From a virus: 64,000 nt of DNA. Below are positions 69-63,805 of this stretch, piece after piece. Each line of letters opens with the position of its first letter. Positions within the stretch are counted from its first letter, which is position 1. The notes beneath the pieces are model-generated. The model saw only the letters and a program-made list of their open reading frames with translations. It did not search any database and was not told the DNA's origin. The stretch is taken from IMG/VR virus record IMGVR_UViG_3300033150_000870, positions 4,329-68,328 of that record; one strand, given 5' to 3'. A program made the translations under genes and the position numbers.

Positions 69-455
69 TCATGCTTTTTTCACCACCTCAACTTGTCCAT
101 TTCTTAATACCCATAATAATCCCCAACTTGATAGCCCCTTTTTCCTCAAATGACTCTCCAATATCACCTTTCGAGGACTGATGAAATACTTTTTTGCGCC
201 AAAGGGATAATGCCGATATTGTCGTAGCCTTCGTTTATCATTAAAATCCTCATATGAAACCTTTGCCTCTATTATATACCATTTCGTCCCGAATGTGGAT
301 TTTTTTGCGCCAACAACATCCATTATCACTTTCACTTTTTTGGTGGGAGAAAGCCGTATCATCTTTGGAACTTCGTATTGAACCAACCAGCATCCTTTTC
401 GGCGCAAAAATTCAATCGCCTTTTTTTCCAGTGTTTCGTGGGTGATATTATTCAT
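69..455 (-). CDS. PD-(D/E)xK nuclease-like protein (Hjc/MmcB-like)
   Basis: Motif spacing E..MDVVG...IIEAKVS; short basic protein. Confidence 0.6.
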   Translation of the reverse strand: MNNITHETLEKKAIEFLRRKGCWLVQYEVPKMIRLSPTKKVKVIMDVVGAKKSTFGTKWYIIEAKVSYEDFNDKRRLRQYRHYPFGAKKYFISPRKVILESHLRKKGLSSWGLLWVLRNGQVEVVKKA

Positions 456-744
456 TATATTTCGCCAATATTTCCTTAATCTTTGATTTTATATATAACT
501 TTTCTTCATCTTTGTATCCATTCGGGATAGTTTCGAGGAAAGTCATAAGAGTAGGATGGATGGAATTTACATCACCTTTTTTACATATTGGACATTTGCC
601 TCTTGAGATATAGATAAGTTCGGTGCCGGGTAATCGTAATCGTCGTGGATGTTTTTCTTTCACACAATTGAAACAGATAAAATACACGAATACATCAATA
701 TTTCTTTTTTCGAGATTAATCTTTTCTGATTCAGGTACTACCAT
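448..744 (-). CDS. Small zinc-finger protein
   Basis: CFNC...CPIC; ORF overlaps both neighbours. Confidence 0.6.
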   Translation of the reverse strand: MVVPESEKINLEKRNIDVFVYFICFNCVKEKHPRRLRLPGTELIYISRGKCPICKKGDVNSIHPTLMTFLETIPNGYKDEEKLYIKSKIKEILAKYNE

Positions 745-1441
745 CCCATAGCCCCCATACTATTTTTTTCCAATTTTGATATATTTTATGATCATTAGTT
801 CCAACTTCTCTTAATGAAAGGATAAAGTCTCCAATACTGGTATAATTTTTCTTGATTTCGGCGATTCGTTTAGGGCCCAGTTGCGGAAGCCCGGCTAAAA
901 AGAAGTTTCTATGATCTTCCAAATTATCAGTCTGTGGTTTCTTTGCTCTGATCCGATCCGGGTATGGGTCTTTATATAATGACTGCGCAAGCAAATGGAT
1001 GGCATACTTCGTTTGAGATATATCTTCTACTTGAAAGACTTTGATTCCCTTTCGGATATGTCGCAGAACAGAGCCCATAAAGAGATTGATTGTTGCGCCC
1101 TTGATCCATTGTTTTGCTTTTGAGAATCTTCCTTCTATGATGAGGATTGTGCATTCATTTCCGTATTCAGATAGCATATTATTGAGTTGTTCTTGTAATC
1201 GTAGTTCCATAAGTGATTTTATATAATCTGAAATTTCCTTTCGTTCAATACAATAAACTTTATCCTCGTATTTTAACAAGAAATCTCCGAATTTTAGTGC
1301 TTCGATTGAAACTTTATATTGATATTCTGGAGGTTTGCCTTTATTTTTTAGTCTAGTTTCCACATTTTTTCCAAGAAAATAAGATTTAAAGTCCAACTTT
1401 TTCTTTTCTCTACTATCGATTTTTATTTCTATCTCCTTCAT
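731..1441 (-). CDS. ERCC4/XPF-family structure-specific nuclease with C-terminal HhH
   Basis: IDSRE, GDF, IERKEISD, IIEG motifs; HhH-like LPQLGPK. Confidence 0.9.
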   Translation of the reverse strand: MKEIEIKIDSREKKKLDFKSYFLGKNVETRLKNKGKPPEYQYKVSIEALKFGDFLLKYEDKVYCIERKEISDYIKSLMELRLQEQLNNMLSEYGNECTILIIEGRFSKAKQWIKGATINLFMGSVLRHIRKGIKVFQVEDISQTKYAIHLLAQSLYKDPYPDRIRAKKPQTDNLEDHRNFFLAGLPQLGPKRIAEIKKNYTSIGDFILSLREVGTNDHKIYQNWKKIVWGLWDGST

Positions 1442-1593
1442 TTTTTTCTCACTAAAAGTCCGTCTAAATATAATCCCACTATCTTTTCAACAAATTTTCG
1501 TATTGATTCTTCTTCCGGATGATTTTTTAAATAAAGTTTGATTCTGTTGTATAATGCCAAATCAATTCTTACTGGTTTTGTGGGGATTCTCAT
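1438..1593 (-). CDS. 51-aa ribbon-helix-helix-like protein (not in ORF track)
   Basis: Hand translation MRIPTKPVRIDLALYNRIKLYL...; its stop overlaps the ERCC4 start (ATGA). Confidence 0.55.
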   Translation of the reverse strand: MRIPTKPVRIDLALYNRIKLYLKNHPEEESIRKFVEKIVGLYLDGLLVRKK

Positions 1594-1621
1594 ACGGCAT
1601 TATATATGACTATAATATTAT

Positions 1622-3340
1622 TTAAAAATATCGTTTTCTTCGGAAATTTCGTTTGAATCCCAATGCTTCTGAGGTAAGTTGATAATTACTTTTTCGTTTC
1701 CTTCGGATTGCTTTATATACAATAATATCATCATATTCGGCGCCGGCACTGGTGGGTAATGCACAAAGACATGCTAATGCGAGAGAATCCGGGAAATCGT
1801 CGTGATATAGTAGTTCATCGGGATTGCCGGGTTGATGGTGGTATTTTATTTTTTTATCCACAGTGACATCCTTTACCAATCCCTTGAGCTGAAGTATTAA
1901 CGGCTCGAAGTTTGGTATTGTGATCAAGTTATGTTCAAACAGCCTTTCGAGATTTCCATACATCGCCATCTTATCACTAATACTAAACCCAATGCCATCA
2001 ACCGGGTAGCCTTCAAATTGCATTTCTTGTACATACTGTGTTCCTATACTATTCTTATCTACAAACCATCGTCTTATATTAAAAAGAGTATGCAAGCTTT
2101 TCATCATCCGTGATACTTCTTTTATGCTTCTCTTATTATCATACCAGATATATACTACCTTCACTTTTGGTTCTCGATACTCCACTATCGTTATGACACT
2201 GTAATCCCTTCCAACCCCAGCTGCAATATCTATCCCACCATAATATTCAATATCACTACTTTGGGCGCAAGAAATAAAATCATAATATTGCACGGCGGAA
2301 TCAACTAAACTTGATGGAAATGCAGCTCCTTCAATCTCATCAAATAATGCTAAATATTCTCGTTCAAAATAATTTTTACCTTTTTTCATTTCTTTTTTTA
2401 ATCTTCTTATATCAACTTGTGGAAATCCTACCCATAATGTTAATTCTTCCCCAGATTCATGAATTTTCTGTTCTTCGGCTTCTAATCTTGATAATAATAA
2501 TCTTCCTATATATCGTTTTTCTTCGTCTAATATTACTCTCCAACCTCGATATTTTCTTTGCGCCGAAATAATTTCCCACTCTTCTTTTACTACAACTTTA
2601 ATTTTTTGGAATGTATGAAGCCCAACTGCTGATGGATAGTGATGCGCTGAATAACCATCATCCGGATCTATTTCTTCATTCTTTTTTATTATCATATCTT
2701 TTGGATATATATCGAATGATCTCCATTTTGCTTCTGGGATAGTATGGGTAATAAATGCACTTGAAAAACATCGATAAAAATGATTTAACTTCCCAAAAGG
2801 GGTACCCAATAATATGCTTGATCCCGCAGTTGATAATAATGATGGCATTAACGCCTCAAAAACCTTATCCGGGATGAATGCAGCTTCTTCAAATATAACT
2901 TCTGATAATGGAAATCCTCTTGCAGTATCACCCGTTTGTCCTACCGGAAAAAATCCGAATTCACTACCATTTCTAAACTTAGTTCCACTTACTTTTGGTT
3001 TATCTACTATGGCATCATATAATATAGGATTTCTTTCTAAATAATTTATTGCATAATCATATAAATGCTTAGATTGTCTTTCACTTGGCGCAAAAATCAA
3101 TATCCCGAACTCTGGCATTGTTATAGCATTATAAACACATCGTTTTGAAATAATACTTGACTTACCACACTGTCTTCCCAATACTACTACAATATCTTCG
3201 TGGTTATCTTTAATGATAGGTTCTTGATACCAATGATCCATCTCGCCGAAAAAGAATAATCCGAACAGAGTTGGGTCTCCAAATATTCGGCGCCGATCTT
3301 TTTCAGAAATAGTAGAAATTGCATCGTGATCTATTATCAT
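1622..3340 (-). CDS. terL: Terminase large subunit
   Basis: Walker A GRQCGKS, Walker B VIFEEAAF, coupling motif GTP, nuclease motifs GGIDIA and HDDFPDSLALA. Confidence 0.95.
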   Translation of the reverse strand: MIIDHDAISTISEKDRRRIFGDPTLFGLFFFGEMDHWYQEPIIKDNHEDIVVVLGRQCGKSSIISKRCVYNAITMPEFGILIFAPSERQSKHLYDYAINYLERNPILYDAIVDKPKVSGTKFRNGSEFGFFPVGQTGDTARGFPLSEVIFEEAAFIPDKVFEALMPSLLSTAGSSILLGTPFGKLNHFYRCFSSAFITHTIPEAKWRSFDIYPKDMIIKKNEEIDPDDGYSAHHYPSAVGLHTFQKIKVVVKEEWEIISAQRKYRGWRVILDEEKRYIGRLLLSRLEAEEQKIHESGEELTLWVGFPQVDIRRLKKEMKKGKNYFEREYLALFDEIEGAAFPSSLVDSAVQYYDFISCAQSSDIEYYGGIDIAAGVGRDYSVITIVEYREPKVKVVYIWYDNKRSIKEVSRMMKSLHTLFNIRRWFVDKNSIGTQYVQEMQFEGYPVDGIGFSISDKMAMYGNLERLFEHNLITIPNFEPLILQLKGLVKDVTVDKKIKYHHQPGNPDELLYHDDFPDSLALACLCALPTSAGAEYDDIIVYKAIRRKRKSNYQLTSEALGFKRNFRRKRYF

Positions 3341-3933
3341 TCTGATACCTCTTCCATTAATTTAAATATATCTTTTGGTTTTTCTTTTTGTTTTTTAGGC
3401 ATTCCAAGCTTATCCATATATTTTATGATTTGTTCATGGATTCGTTTGTCATAAACTGTAATTTTTTCTTGTTCGGCAGTTCGCATTCCAAAAGCATTTT
3501 CAAATCTCCATGCACGATCTTTTCTTATTAACGATCTTATCAGCTCATCAGTTAGTATTTCTCGTGTGGGATCAGTGTGTATATCATCATAGGCGGATTC
3601 AATTTGACTCCATAGATTATTATACATTTCTACTTCAATTGAACATATAGAATTTTCGGAAAAGAATTGGCAGTGTTCTTGTAAGTCGCAATTATCACAT
3701 TTAAGAAATTTCATTTTGCGATTAATAATAGCTTTTTTTATTGTAGAATCAATTTTTCCGCCATGTTTTTCGCATCTACCAGAATCATCGACTGGTATTC
3801 TACGACATGGTTTTAATTCTGGGCCCACTGGGTATCCACAAATTTCATATCCAAGTTGGGATTCTATAACTTTAATAAGATCGAGATAAACATCATCCCA
3901 CTCTGGTAAAGGATTAGATACCATAATCTTCAT
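3337..3933 (-). CDS. Putative terminase small subunit with HGG-type zinc domain
   Basis: CG...CRR...RCEKHGG plus a second Cys cluster; directly upstream of and overlapping terL. Confidence 0.65.
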   Translation of the reverse strand: MKIMVSNPLPEWDDVYLDLIKVIESQLGYEICGYPVGPELKPCRRIPVDDSGRCEKHGGKIDSTIKKAIINRKMKFLKCDNCDLQEHCQFFSENSICSIEVEMYNNLWSQIESAYDDIHTDPTREILTDELIRSLIRKDRAWRFENAFGMRTAEQEKITVYDKRIHEQIIKYMDKLGMPKKQKEKPKDIFKLMEEVSE

Positions 3934-18787: not shown

Positions 18788-19141
18788 TTAATCAATATGT
18801 GCTAACTGCTCTTCTCTCGAAATTAATCTTATTTGTGATGATGTGTTCTCCAAAAAATTCCTTATCACTCGAATATATTCTCTAAATTTTTTATTTACTG
18901 TCCAGTTTCTATATAGATGCCCCACTATCAACTGCGAATCTGTCAAAATTTCTATCGGCGCAAAAATCTTATTCTCGATCACATAAGTTATTGCAAGAAT
19001 TACTGCTAAATACTCACAATCATTGTTCGTGTATTCGGCGCAAGAATATTGTCTCACAACTCGTCTGTCTTTTTGTGGGTCATAAATCGCCGAATATTTT
19101 CTTTTCTTCGATACTCCACCATCACAATATATTTTATACAT
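18788..19141 (-). CDS. rnhA: Ribonuclease HI (archaeal type)
   Basis: IYCDGG, TNNDCEYLA and TDSQLIV motifs. Confidence 0.88.
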   Translation of the reverse strand: MYKIYCDGGVSKKRKYSAIYDPQKDRRVVRQYSCAEYTNNDCEYLAVILAITYVIENKIFAPIEILTDSQLIVGHLYRNWTVNKKFREYIRVIRNFLENTSSQIRLISREEQLAHID

Positions 19142-20665: not shown

Positions 20666-21115
20666 CTATTTTTTGAATGTATATAGTATTATAGTAGGTA
20701 TTGTATTTAATAATGATATATAGTCATTCCATATTTTTGTTAGTCCTTTTATAAAATTTTGATATTTAGGAGTGATTTGGTTTTGATGACAATATATTAT
20801 TAAATCGGGGCGAATATTAGAAAGTTTTAATTCTTCGATTTTACGGAGCAGACGGAAACACTGTACGCCCTCAATAACAAAGTTTTTTTGCGCCAAAGAT
20901 TTCAGTTCGTTGATGAGAAGATAGACTTGGTCTTTATAGGGGTATGATTTATATTTATCGGAATGGATGATTGTATATTTATCGGAGTTGAATTGATTAC
21001 TGAGAGTGGTTTTGCCGGTTTTTGGAAAGCCTATGACCACAATTTTATTATATTTCTCTGCAAATTTTAGTAGTTCATTGGAATCTGTAAATTGTTTTTT
21101 GCACGGGATATACAT
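20666..21115 (-). CDS. P-loop kinase-like protein
   Basis: GFPKTGKTT and VIEG. Confidence 0.75.
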   Translation of the reverse strand: MYIPCKKQFTDSNELLKFAEKYNKIVVIGFPKTGKTTLSNQFNSDKYTIIHSDKYKSYPYKDQVYLLINELKSLAQKNFVIEGVQCFRLLRKIEELKLSNIRPDLIIYCHQNQITPKYQNFIKGLTKIWNDYISLLNTIPTIILYTFKK

Positions 21116-43374: not shown

Positions 43375-45036
43375 ATGCAAGGTTTAAATGACGAGGATTT
43401 AGAAGCAATCCAAGAAAAAATAAAAACTGAAAAAGGATGGGCAGATGCCCAGTTTGAATCCGAGTTTAATAAATATAAGAAAATATTGTTAGACCGGCTT
43501 GGTATGAATGAAGAGGATGTACCCTACGAGGCATTACTGATACAGTTTGCAACTCAACTTGATGTTCCACTTGACGAGTTCCGATATATCCCGGAAGTTG
43601 AAACCACGCCAATAGCAGAAATCAATCTCGAAACTTTTAAATCGACAGAAGAAGACCCCTTCGGAAATAAGGTCAATGCAATACGAGGAATGATCACATG
43701 GATACAAAAACGATACTATAACTCGAAAGAAGTTTCAGTGGATGATGTCGGAAATCAAATTGAAAACACTGTAAGAAGACCATACTACATCTACTATGTG
43801 AAAGACAAAACCGGCGAGATTCGTGGTAGCATCTTCACAAGGGGAGAAACCGCAGAAGACATTGAATCCATTATGGATGAAATAAATGTCGGAGACTATG
43901 TCCAAATAATCAATGTCCCCGTACGCGAAAAATATGAATATAATCGTGAAACCAAAACTCGTATCTCTACCGGCAAACCAGAACTAGGATGGTGGAAAAC
44001 GAGCGCAATCGACAAACTCACCGAAAAAGAGATTGATGACTCGCTACCCACCTTTGAAGAAGTATTCACCGCCGACACCTTTGATGATCTCCTACTCGGT
44101 GGATATAAAATAGCAACTATCACCATCCTCGAACCCCCGCAGATCGTAACATCCCGAAATGGTCGCAAGATGATGATATGTATGGCAATGGTCGGGGTCG
44201 GAAGCACCAATAAAGTCCAACAAGTACGAATACTATCTGAATGCGCCGAAAAACTCCCCGACGACATAAAACTATATTCATTTAGAGCCCTCATCCGATA
44301 CAATGAACTCGACCAAATGATCTATGTTGATAAATTCATATCCCAAGTAATGAAGATCGACTCCTATCTCGACAGCAAACAATCTTCGGCGCCAACAACA
44401 ACACCCAAACCCCGCACCCGCAAACGAAAAGTAACTGAATCAGTAGTGAGAAATATTATCGAAAAATTGGAATGTGATGAATTCACTCTTGATGATGTCT
44501 ATGATAACTTGGATGAAAAATATGAAGACATAGATGAAGACAAATTGAATGAACTAATACTAAAAATCTCTAATGTTAAAGAAATTGATAGTGGTGTATA
44601 TGAAGTCATAAAAAATACTGTAAATGAATCCCAAATCCGTGAAAGCATCTTTGCAAGTATCTCATCCGTGAATGATGTCGGGGGACTAACCTCTCTAATA
44701 GCATTCCAACTATCCATCAATAATGAAGATGTAAAAAATGTCATTGATAAAATGGTCGAAGAAGGAATACTCGAATTTTATGAAAACGGCAACCGCGTAA
44801 GAACTTCTTCGGCGCAAAAAACTTCAACCCCATCACTCCCGATAATGCGGAATACAAAGAAAAACCGTGAAGAAATATTAGAGTTTTTACGAGAAAAATA
44901 TTCAGATGAAGATATACATATAGAAGATGTTAATGAAGCATTACAAGCTGATGTATCAAACATATTTAACTTCTTGACAAGAAAAGGAGAAATATACAAG
45001 AAAAAAGAAGGGGTCTATAAATTACCATCTAAATAA
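43375..45036 (+). CDS. RPA-like multi-OB-fold SSB with C-terminal winged-helix domains
   Basis: EALLIQFATQLDV N-terminus, KDKTGEIRGSIF..VGDYVQI OB fold, and wHTH-like segments. Confidence 0.75.
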   Translation: MQGLNDEDLEAIQEKIKTEKGWADAQFESEFNKYKKILLDRLGMNEEDVPYEALLIQFATQLDVPLDEFRYIPEVETTPIAEINLETFKSTEEDPFGNKVNAIRGMITWIQKRYYNSKEVSVDDVGNQIENTVRRPYYIYYVKDKTGEIRGSIFTRGETAEDIESIMDEINVGDYVQIINVPVREKYEYNRETKTRISTGKPELGWWKTSAIDKLTEKEIDDSLPTFEEVFTADTFDDLLLGGYKIATITILEPPQIVTSRNGRKMMICMAMVGVGSTNKVQQVRILSECAEKLPDDIKLYSFRALIRYNELDQMIYVDKFISQVMKIDSYLDSKQSSAPTTTPKPRTRKRKVTESVVRNIIEKLECDEFTLDDVYDNLDEKYEDIDEDKLNELILKISNVKEIDSGVYEVIKNTVNESQIRESIFASISSVNDVGGLTSLIAFQLSINNEDVKNVIDKMVEEGILEFYENGNRVRTSSAQKTSTPSLPIMRNTKKNREEILEFLREKYSDEDIHIEDVNEALQADVSNIFNFLTRKGEIYKKKEGVYKLPSK

Positions 45037-45056: not shown

Positions 45057-46130
45057 ATGTTGGAATATTTTTTGCGCCATAAAACTAATATTTTGGAATT
45101 TACAAAGGATCGGCAGGTACAGTTAGCATATGGAATAGAAGACGGAAGAGTATTAATGACAAAACGATTTTTTTTAACTGAAGATAATTTCGAGAGGAAG
45201 ATGGGTATCCATAAGGGGTATAACAAATATCCAATGTGTATTCATGCGAGTGTGCATCGATATTTTTTTGCGCCCCGGAGGGCAGAGGGGGTGTATGCAT
45301 TAGACTATGTGATAGACATTGATGGGTCAGATTTCAAGAGTAATACTACCTATTTATTGGAAGTTTGTGAGATATTAAAGGAGCACGGGATTGAGAATTT
45401 TTATATAGTGGAGACGAATGGCACACATGAAGGGTATCAAATAAAGATAGATCAAGAGGCGTTTATGGATACTCGTGAATTCACACCACAAAAATGGAAT
45501 AAACTACGGAAGTTCTACACATATTCTACTTTTTTATTATCAGAATTGCTAAAGATTAACTGCTTGGAGCTGAAAATTGGTGATGAAATGTTTCGATGTG
45601 GTTGGGGCTTCAATGAAAAGAACGGGAATAAACTCTATATTATAAAGAACGAGGTACCTGACCCCTACGAGGGAGAAGAATATATGGAATGGGTGTTTAA
45701 GATGATGGAGCTGGAGTATTTCAAGACAGAGTTTCGGCGCAAAAAATGGAAAGAACCAGTCGCAATAAGGGGAAGTAAAAGAAAATATTACACCACGCCG
45801 AGATATTCGAGTATAAATAAAAGTGATCTTCCGCCATGTATCCAAATTGGGCTATATGAGAATGTGAAGCCGGGGAATCGAGAGAAATCAGTGTTTGCAT
45901 TATGGAGATATTTATCGAATGCGGGTTATACAAAGGAGGCGATAAGAGATTATATGATGGAATGGTATCGAATATTAAAAGAAAGAGGAATCGCTGATAA
46001 TGAAATGTTATACAAGATAAAGGAGAAACTCCAACGCCCATTGGGATATAACAAACCGTTATCATGTAATTATATGAAGCAAATTGGAATATGTGTTTAT
46101 AACTGTGGTAGGAGGAATCCATATGAATGA
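45057..46130 (+). CDS. Archaeo-eukaryotic primase, PriS-PriL fusion
   Basis: YVIDID catalytic motif; LPPCI...PLSCNYMKQIGIC..C Fe-S domain. Confidence 0.85.
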   Translation: MLEYFLRHKTNILEFTKDRQVQLAYGIEDGRVLMTKRFFLTEDNFERKMGIHKGYNKYPMCIHASVHRYFFAPRRAEGVYALDYVIDIDGSDFKSNTTYLLEVCEILKEHGIENFYIVETNGTHEGYQIKIDQEAFMDTREFTPQKWNKLRKFYTYSTFLLSELLKINCLELKIGDEMFRCGWGFNEKNGNKLYIIKNEVPDPYEGEEYMEWVFKMMELEYFKTEFRRKKWKEPVAIRGSKRKYYTTPRYSSINKSDLPPCIQIGLYENVKPGNREKSVFALWRYLSNAGYTKEAIRDYMMEWYRILKERGIADNEMLYKIKEKLQRPLGYNKPLSCNYMKQIGICVYNCGRRNPYE

Positions 46131-47304
46131 ATATTCTCTTATAAATATAATTAAAGTTAAAAAGTTATTTGAAGATGGGTATCCAAAAAAGCTAATTGCA
46201 AAAGAACTCGGATTGTCATTATATAAAGTTAATAAGATAGTGAATCTGTTAGGACTTAAGAAAGATTTTTGCGCAAGAAAGATATTCAAGGCAGATCGTG
46301 AGTATATACGAGAGCATTTTGGGAAGAAACCGACGACTGTAATTGCGAAGCATATAAACTGTAGTTCGGCAACGGTTCGTAAGATTGCAAAGGAAATGAA
46401 TATCCCGCCAAATAGAAAAAGATTAGATTATGAAGAAATAAAAAATGAGATACGAGAGATATTAAAAAAGCATAAGATATGCACGATTTATGAGATTGCG
46501 GAACATTCAAAATTTTCACTTTCATCAATTCGGAAGACAATAACTACTATAGATGATGTTATAATATTTCGTATTCTTTCAACAAGATCATCAGCTAAAT
46601 ATAGTTATTTAATAGATAAATCTGGGGTGCGAGGAAAAATATTATATGCAATTAATGTGGATGATGTCATTGATTATCTACTATCAAAAATAAGGAAACC
46701 GTATAGAGAACTAACAATCCCGGAGCTTCGACACCTATTCTATATAGTTAAAAAAGTATTTAATTGTAATAAAGAATATATAGAGAAATTCTATGCAAAG
46801 TATCGAGGAAAAGATGAACATATAATCCAAGAAATTATTCCCACTAATGAATATGAAGAAATAATATCGATAATTGAAAATGCGGGTGTTGATGTGAATT
46901 ATAAAGGCAGAAGAAATTGTGAAAAGATAAGAAATCTTATTAATGAACATGGGGTTGTCACCCATCAAATGATTATTACTATGTGTGGTATCCTTAACCC
47001 TCATATATATCTCAGATTCATCGGCGCAAAAAGATTTGCATTCAAAAACTATTCCCATCTCAATGTCAAACTCTATAAATTCTTTAATGAAAATATTGTG
47101 AGATCGAAGTATTACTATTATTTTGATGACGAGAAGGCAGTAGAATTTTTAATACGAAACTCCAATAAGCCAATCACCGAACTATCCGAATATAAATACA
47201 ATATTTTAAACAATATGTTCGATTCGATAGATATAGATCCGGAAATTAAAAGATTATATTTCGATGTGGAGATGTGGAAAAAATATGGAAGAATTCAGAA
47301 ATAA
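46084..47304 (+). CDS. Multi-HTH DNA-binding protein
   Basis: IAKELGLSLYKV, IAKHINCSSATV and EIAEHSKFSLSSI. Confidence 0.7.
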   Translation: MEYVFITVVGGIHMNEYSLINIIKVKKLFEDGYPKKLIAKELGLSLYKVNKIVNLLGLKKDFCARKIFKADREYIREHFGKKPTTVIAKHINCSSATVRKIAKEMNIPPNRKRLDYEEIKNEIREILKKHKICTIYEIAEHSKFSLSSIRKTITTIDDVIIFRILSTRSSAKYSYLIDKSGVRGKILYAINVDDVIDYLLSKIRKPYRELTIPELRHLFYIVKKVFNCNKEYIEKFYAKYRGKDEHIIQEIIPTNEYEEIISIIENAGVDVNYKGRRNCEKIRNLINEHGVVTHQMIITMCGILNPHIYLRFIGAKRFAFKNYSHLNVKLYKFFNENIVRSKYYYYFDDEKAVEFLIRNSNKPITELSEYKYNILNNMFDSIDIDPEIKRLYFDVEMWKKYGRIQK

Positions 47305-48448
47305 AATAATATGCGGGGACGCAAGAGATGTTTTGCGCCAGATACCAGCCAATTCGATTGATATGTGTATTACGAGTCCGCCGTATTGGGCGTTGCGACA
47401 GTATGATGTGGAGGATGTAGTATGGAACGACGGGTGGCAAGGACAGCTTGGGTTAGAGCCCGACTTCAGAGATTACATAAGACACTTGAAGGAAATATTC
47501 TCATTAGTAAAAAGAGTGATAAAGAAAGAGGGAAGCATCTGGGTTAATATCGGGGATACCTACTACACAAAATCGGGTGGTAAATTCTTGAACGACCAGA
47601 TCAGCAATAATGAAAGAACAAAAGAAGCCGGGTTAGATAAAGCCAATGAACTGCGCCAAAAAGGATTACTACCCCCAAAATGTCTGGTCGGCATCCCGGA
47701 ACGGTTCGCAATAATGATGACGGATGAACTTGGACTTATTCGGCGCAACACAATCATATGGCACAAACTCAATCCAATTCCTTCGAGTGCCTCTGATAGA
47801 TTTACTATCGATTTTGAATATCTTTATTTTTTCGTGAAGTCGCGTAAATATTATTTCGAGCAACAATTTGAGCCGGCATTACGAAAGATTCCAGCTGGTA
47901 AAGTAGTGGGCGGAAAAAAATATATTGGTATTTCGACATCGGGAACAGTATTTGATGATAGTAGAAAAACTCGAAATAAAAGATGTGTATGGTCATTATC
48001 AGTTCAACCATATTCAGAAGCTCATTTTGCTACATTTTCTCCCAATCTATTAGAAGTTCCGATTAAAGCATGTTGTCCGCAGTGGATATGTAAGAAATGT
48101 GGAATTCCTCGAATGCCTATCTTCAAAAAAATCAAACTAAAAGAAACGAATATTAAATATGGGGGTGTAAAACATGTTATATCAGAATGGAACAACAACC
48201 CAACTTATTCTGGGAAAAAATATGTGATTTATGATCATAAAGTTGGCTATACAAATTGTGGTTGCAATGCGGGGTTTGACAATGGGATTGTATTAGACCC
48301 GTTTATCGGCGCCGGAACTACTGCGGTGGTAGCTCGAAAGTTGGGTCGTAATTTTATAGGGATTGAATTGAGTAGGAAGTATATAGAGATAGCAAAGAGA
48401 CGACTAAGAAGAGAGATTGGAACTGAAATGATAAGTAAATATATATGA
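47264..48448 (+). CDS. Beta-class amino (N4-C/N6-A) DNA methyltransferase
   Basis: TSPPYW, HFATF and VLDPFIGAGTT. Confidence 0.93.
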   Translation: MWRCGKNMEEFRNKIICGDARDVLRQIPANSIDMCITSPPYWALRQYDVEDVVWNDGWQGQLGLEPDFRDYIRHLKEIFSLVKRVIKKEGSIWVNIGDTYYTKSGGKFLNDQISNNERTKEAGLDKANELRQKGLLPPKCLVGIPERFAIMMTDELGLIRRNTIIWHKLNPIPSSASDRFTIDFEYLYFFVKSRKYYFEQQFEPALRKIPAGKVVGGKKYIGISTSGTVFDDSRKTRNKRCVWSLSVQPYSEAHFATFSPNLLEVPIKACCPQWICKKCGIPRMPIFKKIKLKETNIKYGGVKHVISEWNNNPTYSGKKYVIYDHKVGYTNCGCNAGFDNGIVLDPFIGAGTTAVVARKLGRNFIGIELSRKYIEIAKRRLRREIGTEMISKYI

Positions 48449-49236
48449 GGGATAATATGAAGTTATTTGATGATTTTTTTCGGAGCATAAATTTCGATTA
48501 TAAGATCGTGGATGAATATAAGACAATCTATGTGTTGGTTTCAGGGGGCTATGATTCTACATTGTTGCTGGAATATTTTTCGGCGCATTATAGAGACAGA
48601 GTAGTGGCGGTGAATTGCTATAACCCGTATGAGAATAGTAGGACATTGAAAGAGATAAGAAAGAGATATAGATATATAGAGATCAAGCCGGCTAAGGGAT
48701 TGGATTACAAGCAGATATTAGAGGATGCATTTTTGATGTTAAATAGACAAGCAATCGAGAGACATAAAGGGGTGTATGACAAAAAGGGTTTTAATTGCTG
48801 TTATAATATCAAGCACAAGGCATTTCTTTCCGATCCGTTATTCAAACAGAGTGGTTGTGTGGTGATAAGTGGTATAAAGGCGGGAGATGGAAAGCATAGA
48901 TATTATTTTTTGAAGAAGATTAGGGATCAAGATACTTTTTTCCATCGGCATGCCGGCGGACAACTGTATTGCTATCCATTCCGAGACTATCGACATAAAG
49001 AATTACCACCCGAAATTAAACTGAAGTTAAAAGAAAAATATCCTACTATTTCCCACTCTGGTTGTGTAGTCTGTCCCGTTATTGTGTTATTTAACTTGGA
49101 AAAGGAATCATCACGATATTACCGATCATTAAATTATTTAAAAAGATTGATTGATGAAGGAAAATTTAAACCTAATAAATATCTATTAAAGTATAATCCA
49201 AAAATTGCTAATACATACTTGACAGAGGTGTTGTGA
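48445..49236 (+). CDS. PP-loop/PAPS-reductase-like protein
   Basis: VSGGYDS, CC..IK and SGCVVCP. Confidence 0.75.
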   Translation: MRDNMKLFDDFFRSINFDYKIVDEYKTIYVLVSGGYDSTLLLEYFSAHYRDRVVAVNCYNPYENSRTLKEIRKRYRYIEIKPAKGLDYKQILEDAFLMLNRQAIERHKGVYDKKGFNCCYNIKHKAFLSDPLFKQSGCVVISGIKAGDGKHRYYFLKKIRDQDTFFHRHAGGQLYCYPFRDYRHKELPPEIKLKLKEKYPTISHSGCVVCPVIVLFNLEKESSRYYRSLNYLKRLIDEGKFKPNKYLLKYNPKIANTYLTEVL

Positions 49237-49418: not shown

Positions 49419-51871
49419 TACTCCTCAACATCGTCTATGACGGCAATCGCGGGTTTTTTTCAGCAGAGCAGTTTTGCGCCAAAATAAAATTCTATGATCC
49501 TACCACTGAGAAAATCATACTAAAGGAGATGCCGGATGAACACTACCCATATCTACTTGCAACCCGTTATGTCCATACCAACCACCCGGAACTCATTGAG
49601 ATTCAAAAGATAAAGAAATATAATCCACTTCTTGAACGCGAGGTTGAAATGTATAAATATATAACACGAACACCACTCGGCATTCCTTCCCTTAGACGGA
49701 TTATTGGTGAAGAATACTGTTATGAAGACCATATAAAATATGTACAGAATGTTATCTTCGACTTCCAACTTATACCGGGACTTGATTATGATCTTAATCT
49801 CTCTCTTTCGGCGCAAGACATCCCCCAGAAGTCCATTATAAAGCAATCAATCGAAAATAATCTCGGAAAAGAAGAAAAGAAATGGTTGGACTTGTATTTG
49901 GAGTGTCTTCTTGCGCCGATACCGGACATAAAGAGAGTGGCAGTAGATATAGAGGTGCATAGCAGTGATAATAGGATGCCGAATGTAAGGAGCGCGGAAG
50001 AGCCGGTAATTTCATTTGCATACTACGATGGGGTTCGTAAAGGTGTTATTAGTATTTGCGATCTATGTAATAAGAATGACTGTCCAAAAACGGCGCAAAA
50101 AAGAAAAGAATGCATCAACAACGGGGAAACTATTGAATTGGAACGGATGCTGATTGGGACTTTTCTTAATATTATAAATAGTTATCCAATGGTAGTGACT
50201 TTTAATGGCGATGAGTTTGACCTTAAATATATATTATACAGAGCAAAAAAATTAAGGGTAAGAAATGCCGACAAAATACTCTATCTTGATAAGTCTGGAT
50301 TTATGCATATTAAATATGGGGTGCATCTGGATTTATATCAATTTTGCCGACAAAAACCCGTTCAAGTGTATGCATTCAAAAAGAAATATAATAACTATGG
50401 ACTTGATAATATTGCAATTGCACTAATCGGAAAGGGGAAACTTGAAACTGATTTTGTGACAGAACTTGATAATGAAAAATTAAAAGAATATAACCTTATG
50501 GATGCGGAGATAACCTATGAACTCACAAGTTTTGATGACAATCTTATGTTAAAATTAATTATTCTTGTGATGCGGGTTTGCAAATGTGATTTCTTTTATG
50601 CCACACGATCATCCGGTATCACTTGGCTCGGAAATATGCTTGATTGGATACATCGCCAACAAAACTGGCTCATCCCCAAACGCGAAGACCTTGAAAGAAA
50701 ATCCAAAGAATCTAATATCAGTAAATCAATTATTGACGGGAAAAAATATCGCGGGGCGGTGGTGCTCGATAACAAGGAGGGAGTGTATTTCGGCGCCAAA
50801 ACCTACGACTTTGCAAGCTCATATCCATCTGCGATTTATCAATGGAACTTATCATATGAAACTGTAAATTGTAGTCATCGTGAATGTCGAGATAATAAGG
50901 TGCCGGATACCACTCATTGGGTTTGTGTGAAAAAGAGAGGAATGCTCGCAACACACATTGGTTTAATATTGCTATTGAGAACTAAATACTTTAAGCCACA
51001 TAAAAAAGATATAACCGGCGGGATTGCTATCGAACAGATACTTAAAGTCATTATGAATATGAGCTATGGAGTATTTGGAAATGAAGCATGTAATTATCAT
51101 TATCTCCCACTTAGTGACTGCACTACTGCTATTGGAAGGTTTAATATTCTCTCTGCAAAAGAGTTTGTTGAACGAAAATTCGGGAAAACACCCATACATG
51201 GAGATAGTGATTCTATTACCTACTATAACCCCAGTGAAGAACTTGAACGCGAACTATTTGATTTTGCACTAAAAGAACTAAAAGTTGAAATGGGCGTGGA
51301 TTATGATTGGCGATATGTAATATTTTCTCGGCGCAAAAAAATGTACATCGGCGTCGAACATAATGGTAATGTGGTGATAAAAGGACTTCAAGGTAAGAAA
51401 AAGAATACCCCCCCAATATTCAAGAGTGCATTCAAATTTATTACTGAGATATTAAGAGAAGTATATACCCCCGAAGACCTTGAAAATACCAAATTAATTA
51501 TCATAAAAACATTGAGGGGGGTTCGTGAGAAACTTCGGCGCCGGAAGGTGAAGCCGGAGGAAGTGGTGTTTGATGTTACTATTAGTAAGGAGACATGGAA
51601 ATATACAAAAGTGATACCACAACATATTCGAGCTGCAAAATTATACGAGCAGTTAGAGGGGGTGATGCTTGCGCCGGGTGATAGTGTTCAGTATATAAAG
51701 TGTAGGGATGGGTTGGTACAGCCGGTTAAGTATGCGGATGTGACGAAATTGGATGTAGCGGTTTATATCAAGCAATTAGAATCGACGATGAACCCTATAT
51801 TAGAGCCATTGGGAATCGATTTTGATAGTGAAATAAATGGCAGAAAAAGGTTAGATCAGTATTTTTCGTGA
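49415..51871 (+). CDS. polB: Family B DNA polymerase, PolB1-like; probable ATA start at 49415/49418 (track start 49529)
   Basis: Exonuclease motifs DIE, FNGDEFD, YNLMDA; polymerase motifs DFASSYPS, KVIMNMSYG, HGDSDS; upstream in-frame LLNIVYDG...KFYDP; C-terminal RLDQYF. Confidence 0.93.
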   Translation: MILLNIVYDGNRGFFSAEQFCAKIKFYDPTTEKIILKEMPDEHYPYLLATRYVHTNHPELIEIQKIKKYNPLLEREVEMYKYITRTPLGIPSLRRIIGEEYCYEDHIKYVQNVIFDFQLIPGLDYDLNLSLSAQDIPQKSIIKQSIENNLGKEEKKWLDLYLECLLAPIPDIKRVAVDIEVHSSDNRMPNVRSAEEPVISFAYYDGVRKGVISICDLCNKNDCPKTAQKRKECINNGETIELERMLIGTFLNIINSYPMVVTFNGDEFDLKYILYRAKKLRVRNADKILYLDKSGFMHIKYGVHLDLYQFCRQKPVQVYAFKKKYNNYGLDNIAIALIGKGKLETDFVTELDNEKLKEYNLMDAEITYELTSFDDNLMLKLIILVMRVCKCDFFYATRSSGITWLGNMLDWIHRQQNWLIPKREDLERKSKESNISKSIIDGKKYRGAVVLDNKEGVYFGAKTYDFASSYPSAIYQWNLSYETVNCSHRECRDNKVPDTTHWVCVKKRGMLATHIGLILLLRTKYFKPHKKDITGGIAIEQILKVIMNMSYGVFGNEACNYHYLPLSDCTTAIGRFNILSAKEFVERKFGKTPIHGDSDSITYYNPSEELERELFDFALKELKVEMGVDYDWRYVIFSRRKKMYIGVEHNGNVVIKGLQGKKKNTPPIFKSAFKFITEILREVYTPEDLENTKLIIIKTLRGVREKLRRRKVKPEEVVFDVTISKETWKYTKVIPQHIRAAKLYEQLEGVMLAPGDSVQYIKCRDGLVQPVKYADVTKLDVAVYIKQLESTMNPILEPLGIDFDSEINGRKRLDQYFS

Positions 51872-51916: not shown

Positions 51917-52636
51917 ATGCTTGTAGGTGTTATTTGTCCCGACGGAAAGACGAAGGTATCATTTCTTGAATGCTTGAGATGTAAAAACGATAGATGGTGT
52001 GGAACACGAGAATTTAGATTTCTATACTTATTTTCAAGACAAAAATTGTTAATGGATAGGTTTCGGGTGTCATCATTATGTTATTTAGACCCGGCGCGAG
52101 AGGTGTTCTATCGTAAGTTTGACTACTATATTCCTATTAATCTCGTGCATATATTTACAATTGGACACGCCATCCATAAAGAATACCAGAGAGCGTTTCC
52201 GCCAGAAGACTGCGAGGTGCGATTGGAGGTAAAATTCAATTCCTATAGCATCAAGGGGAGTGCTGACATTTTCCACAACAATATCCTCTATGACATCAAA
52301 ACAGTGTCCCACGACGGTACCGGCACAAAGTGGTACTATAAAAATCAACTCTCCATCTATGCCACTATGCTTGAAGACTATTACCATAACCCCGTTAAAC
52401 AAGCATTCATCTGGCAAATCAATAAATCCACCGGCGCAAACAAACTCTACGAGGTCGAAATTGATAAGGAAGTCTTTGAAAGAGCAAAAGAAGTTGCAGA
52501 AACGGCGCACAAATGTTTGCAAGATAACTCTTCATGTGAGCTGTTTATGAATGTCGGAGATCATTGTCGAGATTGTTTCGTGAAGGACTATTGTAATGCA
52601 TACAAACGGAATAAGATTAAAATGCTGACGACATAA
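51917..52636 (+). CDS. Cas4-like PD-(D/E)xK exonuclease
   Basis: GHAIH, GSAD, YDIKT, QLSIY and HCRDC...C. Confidence 0.85.
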   Translation: MLVGVICPDGKTKVSFLECLRCKNDRWCGTREFRFLYLFSRQKLLMDRFRVSSLCYLDPAREVFYRKFDYYIPINLVHIFTIGHAIHKEYQRAFPPEDCEVRLEVKFNSYSIKGSADIFHNNILYDIKTVSHDGTGTKWYYKNQLSIYATMLEDYYHNPVKQAFIWQINKSTGANKLYEVEIDKEVFERAKEVAETAHKCLQDNSSCELFMNVGDHCRDCFVKDYCNAYKRNKIKMLTT

Positions 52637-58652: not shown

Positions 58653-59459
58653 ATGACCAAAATTATATTAGTAATTCCCAAAAAGGCGTTTAATTTTCTT
58701 TATGACTTACTTTATGCAGTAGATACCGAGTTCGTACTGTTGTTTTCAGCATATAGGCGTTCAAAAAGCAAACAAAAGATCATTATCGAGATTGAAGACA
58801 TCTATTATTTGAAACAAACAAATACACGAACAAGCACTGAAATAGATGAGCGAGAAATGGCAACATTCATAGAGAATCACAAGGAATTATTCACAAATTA
58901 CGACAAAATAATGTATAATGAGAAAATAATCGGTTGGATTCATTCACACAATACAATGGGAGCATTTTTTTCATCAATCGATAAAGCTATGAATAATCTA
59001 ATAGCTGGATTTGCGGGATTCTCGGTAGGACTAGTAATTTCACGAACTAAAGATCAAAAACTCGAATATTACATTGAATATACTGAAGATGGCATAAAAC
59101 AGACTGACTACGAATTAATACAAAACAATATGTATAGACCTAACACTAATTACCTAAAATATATAAAAGAAAAAGAAAAAATCATAAAAGAACTGAACGA
59201 ATTAAGCGATATTGATGATTTTGAGTATCCATATCCGTATAACTATGAAAAAACAAAAACAAACAAACTGGATGTAGAAACAATAAAAACGATATTATAT
59301 TCTTATGACGAACAAGAAGTATTAGAAGCAATACATAAATATCTCAACGAAACATACCCAACACCAGACAATTATATGAAATTACAAGAAATTATAGATG
59401 ATCTGTGGGATTTACTCAATGAATTTAGCGAGTTATCAAACTTTTACGGGTGGTATTAA
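58653..59459 (+). CDS. JAB/MPN+ metallo-isopeptidase
   Basis: DTE...GWIHSHNTMGAFFSSID. Confidence 0.9.
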   Translation: MTKIILVIPKKAFNFLYDLLYAVDTEFVLLFSAYRRSKSKQKIIIEIEDIYYLKQTNTRTSTEIDEREMATFIENHKELFTNYDKIMYNEKIIGWIHSHNTMGAFFSSIDKAMNNLIAGFAGFSVGLVISRTKDQKLEYYIEYTEDGIKQTDYELIQNNMYRPNTNYLKYIKEKEKIIKELNELSDIDDFEYPYPYNYEKTKTNKLDVETIKTILYSYDEQEVLEAIHKYLNETYPTPDNYMKLQEIIDDLWDLLNEFSELSNFYGWY

Positions 59460-59462
59460 ATT

Positions 59463-60191
59463 ATGCCTCGATATGAAGGATTCTTTAAATATTCTACGGA
59501 AAGACAGCGAATTGCATTAATCGGATGTGGGAGTCTTGGCTCATATACAGCGTTATTTCTATCAAAATGTGAATTTCCATTATATCTCATTGATGGTGAC
59601 ATTGTAAAGTTCGGTAATTTCAATGTTCAATATTACGACATTCGCGACCGATACGAACTCAAAATAACACGGTTGGAACATAAAATCATTCATAACTATT
59701 GTTTCCGAGATATTGACGATCCAGTAATTACAAGTCCTTATTTCATTCAAGCACATTCTAATCACCCGAAAATCATTCAAAACTTCAAAAACATCAACAT
59801 ATTCATTATAACTACTGATTCCATTCAAGCCAGAAGGAACACATTCAAACTCATTAAAGAAACTAATCCAAACTACACGATAATAATAGATGCTCGATCT
59901 GGAGGCGCAAAATACGAAATATTTACCATTATTCCCGAAACGACAATTGAAAATACATGGAAATACTCACTATCGGGTAAATTTAACGATGAATTTCGGT
60001 GTGGATTCAAGGAACTTCCGTTTGGGTCAGCTTATTGTGCGACATTGATTTGCAGAACCCTTATGAACTATCTTTACTACGATAAGTTTCAATTCTACCA
60101 ATCCTATGACTTTTTAAACGATATTTCAATGAAAATGACCGAAAAAGAATATGTCAAATTTGAACAGCAATTGAGAGAGGCGCAAAAATGA
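59463..60191 (+). CDS. ThiF/E1-like activating enzyme
   Basis: IGCGSLGS, IDGDIV..GN..VQ, TTDSIQAR, IDARSG and RCG. Confidence 0.9.
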   Translation: MPRYEGFFKYSTERQRIALIGCGSLGSYTALFLSKCEFPLYLIDGDIVKFGNFNVQYYDIRDRYELKITRLEHKIIHNYCFRDIDDPVITSPYFIQAHSNHPKIIQNFKNINIFIITTDSIQARRNTFKLIKETNPNYTIIIDARSGGAKYEIFTIIPETTIENTWKYSLSGKFNDEFRCGFKELPFGSAYCATLICRTLMNYLYYDKFQFYQSYDFLNDISMKMTEKEYVKFEQQLREAQK

Positions 60192-62068: not shown

Positions 62069-62325
62069 GGCTTTTAAGAAGCGCTAAAATTTTCATATTA
62101 AAACTTGAAACTTAAAACTAGCTGTTTTTTGTTATAAATTATTATTATATCGTATCAATAAAACTTGGGAGAGGAAGATTCCTTCTAAATGCTCAGTTTG
62201 ACTGATCCAGGCTCGGTTTTTATGTGTTAATTGGTCATTCTTTTGTGATAATCTGTAATCGAAACTTATATATATCAAATCTTACATATATTATATTGTA
62301 TCTCAAAAAAACAATTAGGAGGTTT
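62069..62325 (+). repeat. Intergenic repeat element, copy 4
   Basis: GGCTTTTAAGAAGCGCTAAAA identical to copy 2; AAACTT array; TCGTATCAA..ACTTGGGAGAGG. Confidence 0.8.
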
Positions 62326-62331
62326 GATAGC

Positions 62332-63391
62332 ATGGCGTGTGAAAAAATCAATGTGTTTGAAAATGATTTTGACGAATTAATTAGAGATTTTACGATTGAT
62401 AAAATAGAAGAGTATATATCAAAAGTATTTAAAGAAAATCCAATGGCTCGAACTACAGAAACTATTTTTGAAATAAAACGATTGAACTACAAAAAATTAC
62501 ATGATTTTACAGAAGAATTTGTAATTATGCAGTTAGAAAAAGAGAATTTGGATAAATTAATAGAAATAGAAAATTATATCACTAATTGTGTAGAATTTAA
62601 TAAAATAATTGATGAATTTGCTTTACGAATTTTTGCTTCTATGCTCTAATTTACTCTTTTTTTTTTTGTACATATATTGTAATTATAGGTGTGAAATGAT
62701 GGTCAGAAATATGATGAAATATAAAGTAAAATATAAAAAATATAGAATAAAAAATAGGAGAAATAAAGAAAGAAAAAATAAAGGAGTGTGATAGAATATG
62801 GGATTAGATCTTAGATTGATTCAAGAATTTGTAATTTTGCGTAAAATTTTGGGATATGAGCAAATCCCGATAAAAGCGATACTAAAGTCATATAATAATA
62901 ATGAAGATATATTAAAAATTATCAATATTTACATTAGGAGAATCAATCTTATTAAAGGATGGCATCTAGCAGAACTTAAAGATACTATGTTTTTGAACGC
63001 GGGCTATGTACCATTGAATATATGGGAGAGTGAATAAGCAATGGTAGGAATAAAACGAACTTGTGAAATGTGCGACAGCTTGGCTCAGTATGTTGTTTGG
63101 CGCAGAAACACTGATCAAGTAAATTTCTATTGCGAGCAACATTTTGATTCAATACATTTGCTAATCGAAGACACTATGATTGATCTTAAGACATCAGATA
63201 CAATGAGATTACGATATTTGAAAGTAATTGAGATTTTATTAGACTACATACATGATTACGACCGAAATTGGAGCGACACAAACACACTTCACTTTTGGGA
63301 GGACAACGCAGTCATAAAACAACAACAAGCATTACAAGAGATAATACATCATTGTAAAAAACTATTGGCACTTCTTGAGGCATATCGTTAG
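62332..63391 (+). other. Small hypothetical CDSs (62332-62649, 62798-63037, 63041-63391)
   Basis: GGAGG/GGAG SDs; no family recognised. Confidence 0.55.
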
Positions 63392-63410
63392 TAATCTCTT
63401 TTTTTCATTT

Positions 63411-63500
63411 TGCTTTTAATATGTGTTTGAAAATCATCATTAAAACTTTAAACTTCACTCTTTTTTTTATTCATTTTTCACTTCATTATTTATTCGTATA
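63411..63500 (+). repeat. Intergenic repeat element, degenerate copy 5
   Basis: GCTTTTAA...GAAAATCA..TTAAAACTTTAAACTT...TCGTAT. Confidence 0.5.
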
Positions 63501-63805
63501 TACTTCTTTTTACCCAAATTTTTCCCGACTAAAACACCATAAAAGGGCGCAAAACACCCATCAATTGAACTCCCAAACTCTGGCCTGGATCGGGTAAATT
63601 TCCCAACAAAACCTTTAAAAATCTTATACCTACCATATGGCACCCATAAAACTTATAAATGTTTCGATTTTGACACATCCGTAAATTTTATAAATCTTTC
63701 GACTCGATCCTGTAATTTTTTTCGATTTGTGCATTGTCACATAATTAAATCGTCATTTGGAGTCTGGTCTTGATACAGGATAACAATTAAAAAAGAACGG
63801 ATGAA

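Follow-up and report, generated by a model that had tools for sequence, protein, structure and literature searches.

A short GC-rich word, GCGCC, recurs throughout the 64-kb window analyzed here, which comprises bases 4329–68328 of the 68,328-bp IMG/VR virus record IMGVR_UViG_3300033150_000870 and has a G+C content of 34.5%. The word is oriented, lies on both strands and is followed on its 3′ side by a trail of elevated G that decays over ~300 nt. We suggest that it may be an oriented signal, maintained by selection, at which strand-specific DNA synthesis or processing starts and runs one way, with the trail as its footprint, a reading drawn from nucleotide sequence to which we give a little less than an even chance. 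The virus is a myovirus with archaeal-type replication genes.

GCGCC is an over-represented and oriented word

GCGC sites, assigned to neither strand, extend from position 190 to 63555 and number 160 in the window and 170 in the whole record, where base composition predicts 60. Counted on both strands, the 340 occurrences compare with 120.5 expected from a zero-order model and 136.6 from a maximal-order Markov model. On the same two-strand basis TGCGCC is found 103 times against 6.8 expected, and TTTTGCGCC 44 times (22 forward and 22 reverse copies in the record) against 0.24, while its letters in backward order have 0 and 0 copies in the whole record. Within the window there are 75 GCGCC, 84 GGCGC, 29 GGCGCC, 19 TTTTGCGCC, 22 GGCGCAAAA and 3 TTCGGCGCCGAA, and CGCGC is absent. 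The base before GCGC is G in 86 cases, T in 73, A in 11 and C in 0, and the base after it (position +4) is C in 81, A in 73, G in 9 and T in 7, so that the context KGCGCM holds 150 of the 170 sites. An earlier note on this DNA, made by eye, had claimed that GCGC is over-represented, mostly in these forms, and that it falls inside genes in any frame. Both statements hold: genes contain 159 of the 170 sites, which is proportional to coding density (coding fraction 0.92), and the first G of GCGC occupies the three codon phases 70, 48 and 42 times.

The enrichment persists after correction for codon usage. As a codon-aware null, each gene was subjected to 200 synonymous shuffles that kept both the protein and the codon counts. 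KGCGCM was observed 143 times against 35.1 ± 4.5 in the shuffles (maximum 48; z = 24), GCGC 160 times against 82.7 ± 7.7, and TTTTGCGCC with its reverse complement 38 times against 3.9 ± 1.7. The word is thus kept by something acting on DNA and not on protein. The copies can be compared with a relative of the virus, a 66,636-bp IMG/VR record (G001), in which the residues aligned to those encoded by the motif are identical in 68 of 177 cases (38.4%), compared with 2995 of 7652 (39.1%) elsewhere, with 2 gaps in the 177 positions. The few gaps and ordinary identity indicate that the copies arose by substitution in existing codons and not by insertion. An inserted mini-repeat of the RPE or MITE type is contradicted by the same gap count, by the scarcity of decayed copies (with the rest of TTTTGCGCC intact, each single-base change to its GCGC core occurs 0–2 times, versus 44 perfect copies) and by the dissimilar sequences of the flanks.

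To describe orientation, each site was divided into two half-sites, termed S when GCGC is followed by C and W when it is followed by A. Heterotypic SW sites number 103, and SS and WW sites 29 and 18, whereas half-site frequencies predict 74.6, 43.2 and 32.2, respectively (p = 3e-6). A logo of the 109 asymmetric sites reveals a six-base T-run located only 5′ of GCGCC and a weak R-A-A on the 3′ side. Because of the SW excess and the one-sided T-run, the site is better read as GCGCC than as a palindrome; indeed, only 47 of the 170 sites are 6-bp palindromes (29 GGCGCC and 18 TGCGCA). The oriented consensus, T6-GCGCC-R-A-A, refines the motif of the earlier note by adding the T-run and the R-A-A. 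GCGCC halves point rightward in 81 cases and leftward in 86. Halves of the same orientation have median spacings of 693 and 663 nt and maximum gaps of 3,850 and 3,330 nt, so that each strand offers sites at intervals that would suit discontinuous synthesis. Sites are also more evenly spaced than under random placement (coefficient of variation 0.80 versus 0.99, p = 0.001), with 4 spacings below 50 nt where 19.8 are expected. No pattern was seen in the orientation of neighbors, 49 of 108 of which share orientation.

The even spacing and the scarcity of short intervals could also reflect an abundant dimeric DNA-binding or chromatin protein that recognizes a GC core with a T-run on one side and A-rich sequence on the other; the trail would then be unrelated or a side effect of occupancy. 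The logo is, in fact, partly dyad-symmetric, being T-rich 5′ and A-rich 3′, with K at −1 and M at +4. However, the excess of heterotypic, asymmetric sites and the mostly one-sided information in the logo run counter to such a protein, and a symmetric binder leaves a one-sided, strand-specific trail of 300 nt unexplained. We regard this explanation as quite improbable.

A one-sided G trail follows GCGCC

The trail is visible in raw GC skew, taken over the 150 nt outward of each half and compared with a ±1-kb baseline. The anomaly is +0.108 for S halves (n = 163, p = 5e-8) and +0.003 for W halves (n = 142), and the two classes differ (Welch p = 9e-5). Since local strand composition distorts such a one-sided anomaly when it is computed over all words (those rich in purines score high, and the null standard deviation is 1.78), we used step statistics. 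The skew step, in which the 150 nt to the left of a word are subtracted from the 150 nt to its right and which is blind to orientation, is largest for GCGCC among 1,414 words of 4–6 nt (t = 6.8, null standard deviation 1.18), and each of the ten top words has at least 4 consecutive letters in common with the motif forms CGGCGCCGA and GGCGCAA. A same-strand step in G at third codon positions likewise places GCGCC first among 858 pentamers, with t = 7.8 (null standard deviation 1.17), and the best unrelated word reaches 2.8.

The gain in G at third codon positions (dG3) on the 3′ side of S halves averages +0.073 over 158 halves (p = 5e-15; 73% positive) and is found in every quarter of the genome, whichever way the half points with respect to the gene; the third-position profile around oriented GCGCC is thus not flat. 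In successive 35-nt bins the gain is +0.082, +0.074, +0.046, +0.052, +0.029, +0.040, +0.019, +0.025 and +0.030, after which it is ~0, so that the trail is ~300 nt long with an excess of ~0 beyond ~315 nt. Among variants of the word, dG3 is 0.093 for TTTTGCGCC, 0.086 for GCGCCG and GCGCCC, 0.043 for GCGCCA, 0.030 for GCGCA and −0.010 for GCGC followed by G or T. Viewed on the coding strand, third-position GC skew has a baseline of 0.156 and moves to 0.392 in S flanks directed downstream along the gene and to −0.087 in those directed upstream. Codon positions 1 and 2 shift in the same direction as position 3, by less. At four-fold degenerate sites, G on the outward strand rises from 0.183 to 0.257 in co-oriented flanks and from 0.130 to 0.229 in anti-oriented flanks (downstream versus upstream, chi-square p = 1e-17).

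Individual sites illustrate the effect. The 150 nt that follow the plus-strand TTTTGCGCC at 33306–33314 (trail included, 33306–33464) contain 48 G and 8 C, a skew of 0.71 compared with 0.41 upstream. Another plus-strand copy, at 20886–20894 (20886–21044 with its trail), lies within a minus-strand gene and has a skew of +0.46 in the downstream 150 nt and −0.13 in the upstream 60 nt. C-rich sequence 5′ of GGCGC had been described as the same effect on the other strand, and it is: the 150 nt preceding GGCGC at 35213–35217 (minus strand, 35063–35217), in a plus-strand gene, contain 45 C and 19 G (skew −0.41) with codons that end in C, and the 150 nt preceding GGCGC at 52433–52437 (minus strand, 52283–52437), in a plus-strand PD-(D/E)XK nuclease gene, have a skew of −0.39. 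At the palindromic GGCGCC at 44388–44393, which belongs to neither strand, the upstream 150 nt have a skew of −0.32 and C predominates in the downstream 60 nt too (−0.33); the earlier note had listed the stretch after 44393 as a counter-example, and this and every site that it cited behave as it claimed. Two C-rich stretches that were read through are ordinary coding sequence with C-ending codons.

Long minus-strand antisense open reading frames (ORFs) overlie plus-strand genes at 43896–44303, 52085–52522 and 45721–46122, the first two in the path of C-rich trails. Local composition probably gave rise to them incidentally, as the annotated frame keeps the third-position pattern.

Several candidate causes of the trail were considered and rejected. 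Selection for G-quadruplexes or G-runs does not apply, as run lengths are geometric, and neither a conserved repeat downstream of the word nor an excess of a particular k-mer in the flanks was seen. Position within the gene does not account for the trail (quartiles span 0.25–0.77 across all classes), nor does promoter position, as sites have no fixed position relative to gene starts.

The last point bears on a transcriptional origin, in which GCGCC-G-A-A-A would act as a BRE-like promoter element, or the T-run as an archaeal terminator, so that short transcripts, both sense and antisense, would begin or end at the sites, and transcription-associated asymmetry or selection on R-loops would render the non-template strand G-rich. 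The sequence CCGAAA presumably resembles archaeal BRE consensus sequences, and the sign of the trail fits transcription outward from GCGCC, given that coding strands are G-rich overall (skew 0.17). However, besides the lack of a fixed position relative to gene starts, composition is at background from +10 on with no TATA-like box at a fixed distance, the ~80 antisense promoters that would lie within genes would be costly, and the local dG3 of +0.07 exceeds the coding/template asymmetry of whole genes (G3 − C3 about 0.04–0.05). A transcription signal is therefore improbable in our view.

That no biology is involved, and that the pattern stems from chance, codon usage or gene-strand skew, insertion of a mini-repeat or an error of assembly or sequencing, is scarcely credible. 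Gene-strand skew is strong here and would alone make many flanks look G-rich. However, the step statistic controls both local and gene-level skew and still ranks GCGCC first, the effect is present in both gene orientations and all genome quarters, the codon-preserving null is exceeded at z = 24, motif codons align to G001 without gaps beyond the two noted above and thus are not inserted elements, and sequencing errors would ignore codon position.

The trail is a gain of G without a gain of T

Near the site, G in the flank rises mainly at the cost of A, and C falls slightly. The earlier description of the 3′ flank as G/T-rich and C-poor thus stands for G and, to a slight extent, for C. It fails for T, which is not gained (TA-skew difference −0.01, p = 0.57) and at four-fold sites is slightly down. 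In two-fold codons of co-oriented flanks, G/(A+G) rises from 0.273 to 0.456 (odds ratio (OR) 2.2, p = 1e-22), and the same change, viewed from the other strand, takes C/(C+T) from 0.222 to 0.290 in anti-oriented flanks. The other transition pair on the outward strand, C/(C+T), is flat or slightly down (OR 0.84–0.86). The shift fits more A-to-G changes, or fewer G-to-A changes (equivalently, fewer C-to-T on the complement), on the strand 3′ of GCGCC.

With no gain of T, the shift does not match plain C-to-T deamination of the GCGCC strand. Thus, the proposal in the earlier note of a site-initiated directional process is borne out in so far as the trail is polar, distance-decaying, dominated by silent sites and strand-specific, and simple deamination of an exposed strand, which it had offered as one form of that process, is not supported.

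Relatives of the virus and searches for the pattern elsewhere

The relative G001 matches 27 of the 106 proteins encoded by the record, among them the capsid protein (59%), terminase (43%), polymerase (36%) and primase (34%). It has no excess of GCGC (34 versus 70 expected), and no word in it has a trail, the maximum t being 3.5 among 1,115 words. A fragment of a second relative (filed twice, as L009 and L074) also has no excess of the motif, with GCGC at 25 versus 17. Other words stand out in G001: CGTG/CACG is in excess on both strands (800 versus 249 expected), without flanking context or trail, and GGCC and ACGT are found 0 and 354 times where 70 and 221 are expected. TCGCGA, considered as an iterated word in a 17.8-kb piece of G001, proved to be a local cluster, the last 3 kb containing 11 of its 16 sites.

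No close relative was found by megablast against phages or in a scan of viral contigs with the TerL protein alone. A tblastn search of a phage collection with TerL returned 23 records, all below 60% identity. Genome contigs searched with a TerL alignment yielded a mis-binned viral contig in a Chlamydiae metagenome-assembled genome and a distant match. Searches with the primase protein gave 2 and then 7 proteins, and a 14-mer scan of viral contigs gave 116 matches, mostly single and chance-like. Enrichment of GCGCCG was seen in only one of these, an unrelated 10.8-kb IMG/VR contig of 40% G+C (L181:1-10848), in which GCGCCG/CGGCGC occurs 49 times against 1.4 expected, evenly placed, with 16 GGCGCC sites; there is no skew step around its sites (D = −0.02, p = 0.37), and it has no proteins in common with the virus.

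One difference between the virus and G001 concerns a block of three plus-strand genes at 46084–49236, which encode, in order, a winged helix-turn-helix (wHTH) protein (46084–47304), an N6/N4 DNA methyltransferase (47264–48448) and a PAPS-reductase/QueC-like PP-loop protein (48445–49236), and which may constitute a DNA-modification module. The block has no tblastn match in G001, where the primase and a conserved small ORF that flank it are adjacent. The absence of the block from a genome that lacks the motif is a coincidence of one genome pair and constitutes weak evidence.

The block does raise the question of a methylation-linked word in the manner of HIP1, the iterated palindrome of cyanobacteria. 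GCGC(C) would be the target of a methyltransferase of the virus or of its host, repair directed by the methyl group or the motif would make and keep the sites, and the trail would consist of excision and resynthesis tracts. For HIP1, a methyltransferase link and a repair model have been proposed, and Elhai's model of HIP sites postulates methylation-dependent mismatch repair (PMC4390886). GCG(m4C) methylation has been reported in an Asgard genome (PMC11529989), and in the virus GCGT/ACGC, the deamination neighbors of the outer C, are depleted (85 versus 229), and the methyltransferase gene lies beside the PP-loop and wHTH genes in a block that motif-less G001 lacks. However, among 62 viral loci that carry a homologous methyltransferase none (0 of 62) is enriched for the motif, which argues against a general METHYLTRANSFERASE link; the highest observed-to-expected ratio for GCGC in these loci is ~2, in loci of 50–56% G+C with CGCG equally raised. 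Moreover, mismatch repair directed by a symmetric methylated site would favor neither strand, whereas the trail is one-sided and strand-specific and the site itself is preferentially asymmetric, and the depletion of ACGC may just accompany the total avoidance of ACGT (below). We consider a methylation-linked word unlikely.

A proposed model for strand initiation at GCGCC

How a start signal of the kind proposed at the outset might operate can be stated in outline. The word would mark the start of new strands, with a template reading 5′-GGCGC-A-run-3′, and the nascent strand would begin in or near 5′-GCGCC and run into the trail. The starter might be the virus's own AEP primase-polymerase, which would be the likeliest agent, or extension might proceed from a site-specific nick. 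A fixed start entails a fixed gradient of template exposure or resynthesis across a fragment-sized distance: template beside the start would be converted to duplex first, or be resynthesized most often, and template cytosines there would be lost less than elsewhere in a genome drifting toward AT. C kept on the template would appear as G on the nascent-sense strand, less and less so farther from the start. The priming version is the most economical: if the primase requires a GC-rich word in a genome of 34% G+C, then enrichment of that word would be forced, and the use of both strands, the independence of frame, the even spacing and the lineage specificity would be explained as well.

In its narrower form, the proposal is that discontinuous strand synthesis has fixed starts, namely the copies of the word, and that these are read by the viral AEP primase-polymerase. 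The virus would then have multiplied the word and distributed it evenly over the two strands so that its AT-rich genome could be replicated, and the gradient would be the fossil of template exposure or resynthesis at increasing distance from the primer start. We regard the narrower form as rather unlikely in these exact terms. Nicking with patch resynthesis explains the trail equally well as priming and the enrichment less well. Three steps of the model are inferred: initiation of synthesis at the word, the identity of the enzyme and a mutational nature of the trail.

A candidate for the starting enzyme is encoded on the plus strand at 45057–46130, so that a primase gene, which the earlier note had placed among its candidate enzymes, does exist. 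The product, a putative AEP primase-polymerase of 357 aa with a C-terminal helical, Cys-bearing domain, has no Pfam match. By Atlas features (scores 0.96–0.97) it groups with clusters that contain PriCT_1 in 62–88% of members and DNA_primase_S in 13–15%, the first-ranked cluster having PriX in 14% of members, and its Atlas model aligns to DNA_primase_S clusters with a TM score of 0.53. In an alignment of six sequences, the IDIDG (DxD) motif and a His are invariant. A single-sequence model (pLDDT 45) was set aside; the AlphaFold2 model generated from the six-sequence alignment has a pLDDT of 73, and its top Foldseek matches in the PDB are RepB′ primase, CAPP Prim-Pol and Prim-PolC (E 4e-5 to 5e-4), with human PrimPol and archaeal primases among the further matches (full range, E 4e-5 to 1e-2). 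Several lines thus point to the predicted identity of this protein as an AEP primase-polymerase. In AEP enzymes, the helix-bundle domain binds the primase recognition site of the template, and NrS-1 Prim-Pol needs TTTGGTTA or GTGR (PMC8718748). By analogy, the viral protein is a plausible candidate for the reader of GGCGC-A-run.

Several observations weigh against strand initiation at the word. Word and trail are known from one genome only, and G001 encodes a homologous primase (34% identity) yet has neither, although primase specificity may differ between the two. A single origin would predict a switch in the orientation of GCGCC along the genome, and no significant switch is seen (cumulative range 15, permutation p = 0.32), nor does trail strength depend on orientation and position. 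W halves also have a small effect (dG3 +0.030, different from S at p = 5e-4). At four-fold sites A, C and T lose about equally to G, which leaves no clean signature of a single mutation, and the dominance of silent sites would equally be expected from weak selection on base composition.

Replication, recombination and other genes of the virus

Beyond the primase, the record has a terminal repeat of 114 bp, and the structural genes in the window include those for terminase, portal, an HK97-type major capsid protein and tail sheath. A protein search with TerL returned the protein itself and that of "Lokiarchaeota virus Ratatoskr" (43% identity). Because the latter is the sole named relative of the terminase, the virus is likely to be a tailed virus of an Asgard archaeon. 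Neither RNA families (Rfam) nor tRNAs were found in the window.

The replication genes include a plus-strand Family B DNA polymerase at 49529–51871 (Pfam DNA_pol_B, 6.7e-25; exonuclease domain, 2.4e-16), a minus-strand RNase H, which would serve in primer removal, at 18788–19141 (Pfam RNase_H, 7e-8) and a plus-strand RPA-like multi-OB single-strand DNA-binding protein at 43375–45036 (Pfam RPA_C, 1.4e-5), for which Atlas matches to archaeal RPA/OB clusters, at scores of 0.77–0.79, are leads only. A weak PCNA-like match is also present among the virus proteins. By annotation, these four would round out, together with the AEP, a lagging-strand tool kit.

Other genes are those of a recombination tool kit: a plus-strand RecA-superfamily ATPase at 41505–42740, with KaiC, AAA_25 and Rad51 matches, that could be a recombinase or helicase; the plus-strand PD-(D/E)XK (Cas4-like) nuclease at 51917–52636 (Pfam PDDEXK_1, 5.8e-8); and a minus-strand ERCC4-domain nuclease at 731–1441 (Pfam ERCC4, 5.5e-11). 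With the RPA-like protein, they lend some substance to the idea of a Chi-type recombination hot spot, whereby a nuclease or helicase would be regulated by the word and the recombinase loaded on the strand beside it, and the G tract would be a selected pairing or loading sequence or the outcome of biased heteroduplex repair. A word that is oriented, over-represented and flanked by a polar effect is what such a hot spot would show, and RecA prefers G/T-rich TGG repeats that resemble Chi (PMC3763553). However, the trail is a general gain of G without T, with no enrichment of a pairing word (TGG, for example) over the level set by G content; biased heteroduplex repair should lift both G and C on a strand, and only G rises. 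Further, the word has no orientation bias along the genome, and one site per 400 bp far exceeds any known Chi density. No RecBCD- or AddAB-like gene was found in the 67 proteins scanned with Pfam or PHROGs, in which the PD-(D/E)XK and ERCC4 nucleases were present. A Chi-type function is, in our estimation, decidedly unlikely.

Two features of the record stand apart from the word and its trail. Several other short words are missing or rare: ACGT is wholly absent (0 versus 218 expected), CTAG is found 24 times against 218 and GGCC 11 times against 60, and, with both strands counted, CAGG/CCTG stands at 30 against 229 and AGCG/CGCT at 65 against 229. CGCGC has 0 copies. Judged from these counts, this looks like avoidance of several restriction sites. 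The virus also carries eukaryote-like genes, namely a JAB/MPN protease adjoining a ThiF/E1-like protein, a weak E2-like (UQ_con) match and a Ro60/TROVE protein with vWA, located at 58653–60191 and 39384–40739 of the window and at 2847–3557 of the record, outside the window.

Comparison with known systems

If priming or nicking at the word is true, the step statistic would be a finder of start sites in other genomes that needs sequence only, the 357-aa AEP would be the first enzyme of interest, and local mutational or selective regimes would reshape synonymous codon usage at a scale of 300 nt, which matters for analyses of codon usage and selection in viruses. If, in addition, the AEP reads the start sites, then the geometry of Okazaki fragments and the specificity of the primase in an uncultured archaeal virus would be readable from its genome alone. 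The parts of the literature searched, with searches that were not built to prove absence, contain no description of a repeated, oriented word that has a composition trail on one side.

The closest parallel in abundance is HIP1 (GCGATCGC), which is GC-rich, 15- to 300-fold over-represented, located in genes in any frame, selected and non-randomly spaced in cyanobacteria (PMC5861425). The virus word resembles it in being at least 15-fold over-represented (in the forms TGCGCC and TTTTGCGCC) and independent of frame. However, HIP1 is a strict palindrome of cellular genomes that is found phylum-wide, whereas the virus word is asymmetric at most of its sites and known from one virus, being found in neither of the relatives examined; it also has a one-sided trail, of which there is no mention for HIP1 in the portions of the literature examined.

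As a short, oriented start word, GCGCC resembles primase recognition sequences, such as the GTC-based pentamers of T7, TTTGGTTA or GTGR of NrS-1 and GTG of pRN1 (PMC8718748, PMC12839067), and the predicted C-terminal helical domain of the viral AEP would parallel the sequence-reading helix-bundle domain of other AEP systems. Unlike for the virus word, genome-wide enrichment, even spacing and a trail are not described for primase recognition sequences in the parts of these sources examined, and the homologous primase of a genome that lacks the word, G001, departs from what would be expected of primase sites. The nicks of T5-like, phiKMV-like and tf phages provide another comparison. Nick words are oriented, and the consensus for major nicks in T5, 5′-R/GCGCRGG-3′ (PMC3517423), has the GCGC core in common with the virus word, which is a lead only. 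However, the phages in question have 4–14 major nicks, all on one strand, whereas the virus has ~170 sites with halves on the two strands, and no nickase gene was identified in it.

Chi, which lies in GT-rich islands, is likewise an over-represented oligomer with an orientation, and its effect on a DNA transaction is polar and weakens with distance. However, it is co-oriented with replication and ~10-fold sparser, unlike the virus word. Strand-asymmetric composition or substitution tied to strand starts is also seen in the GC-skew switches at origins and in the mutational footprints at Okazaki-fragment junctions that Reijns and colleagues are said to have described in eukaryotes in 2015. Those cases involve one or two switches per replicon, or averages over starts that are not fixed, whereas the virus has ~160 fixed, sequence-defined sites, each with a gradient of ~300 nt. 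Finally, known over-represented words, including HIP1, Chi and uptake sequences, mostly bear no trace of what happens at them; the trail at ~160 half-sites gives the direction, the ~300-nt length scale and the strand of a DNA transaction in an uncultured virus.

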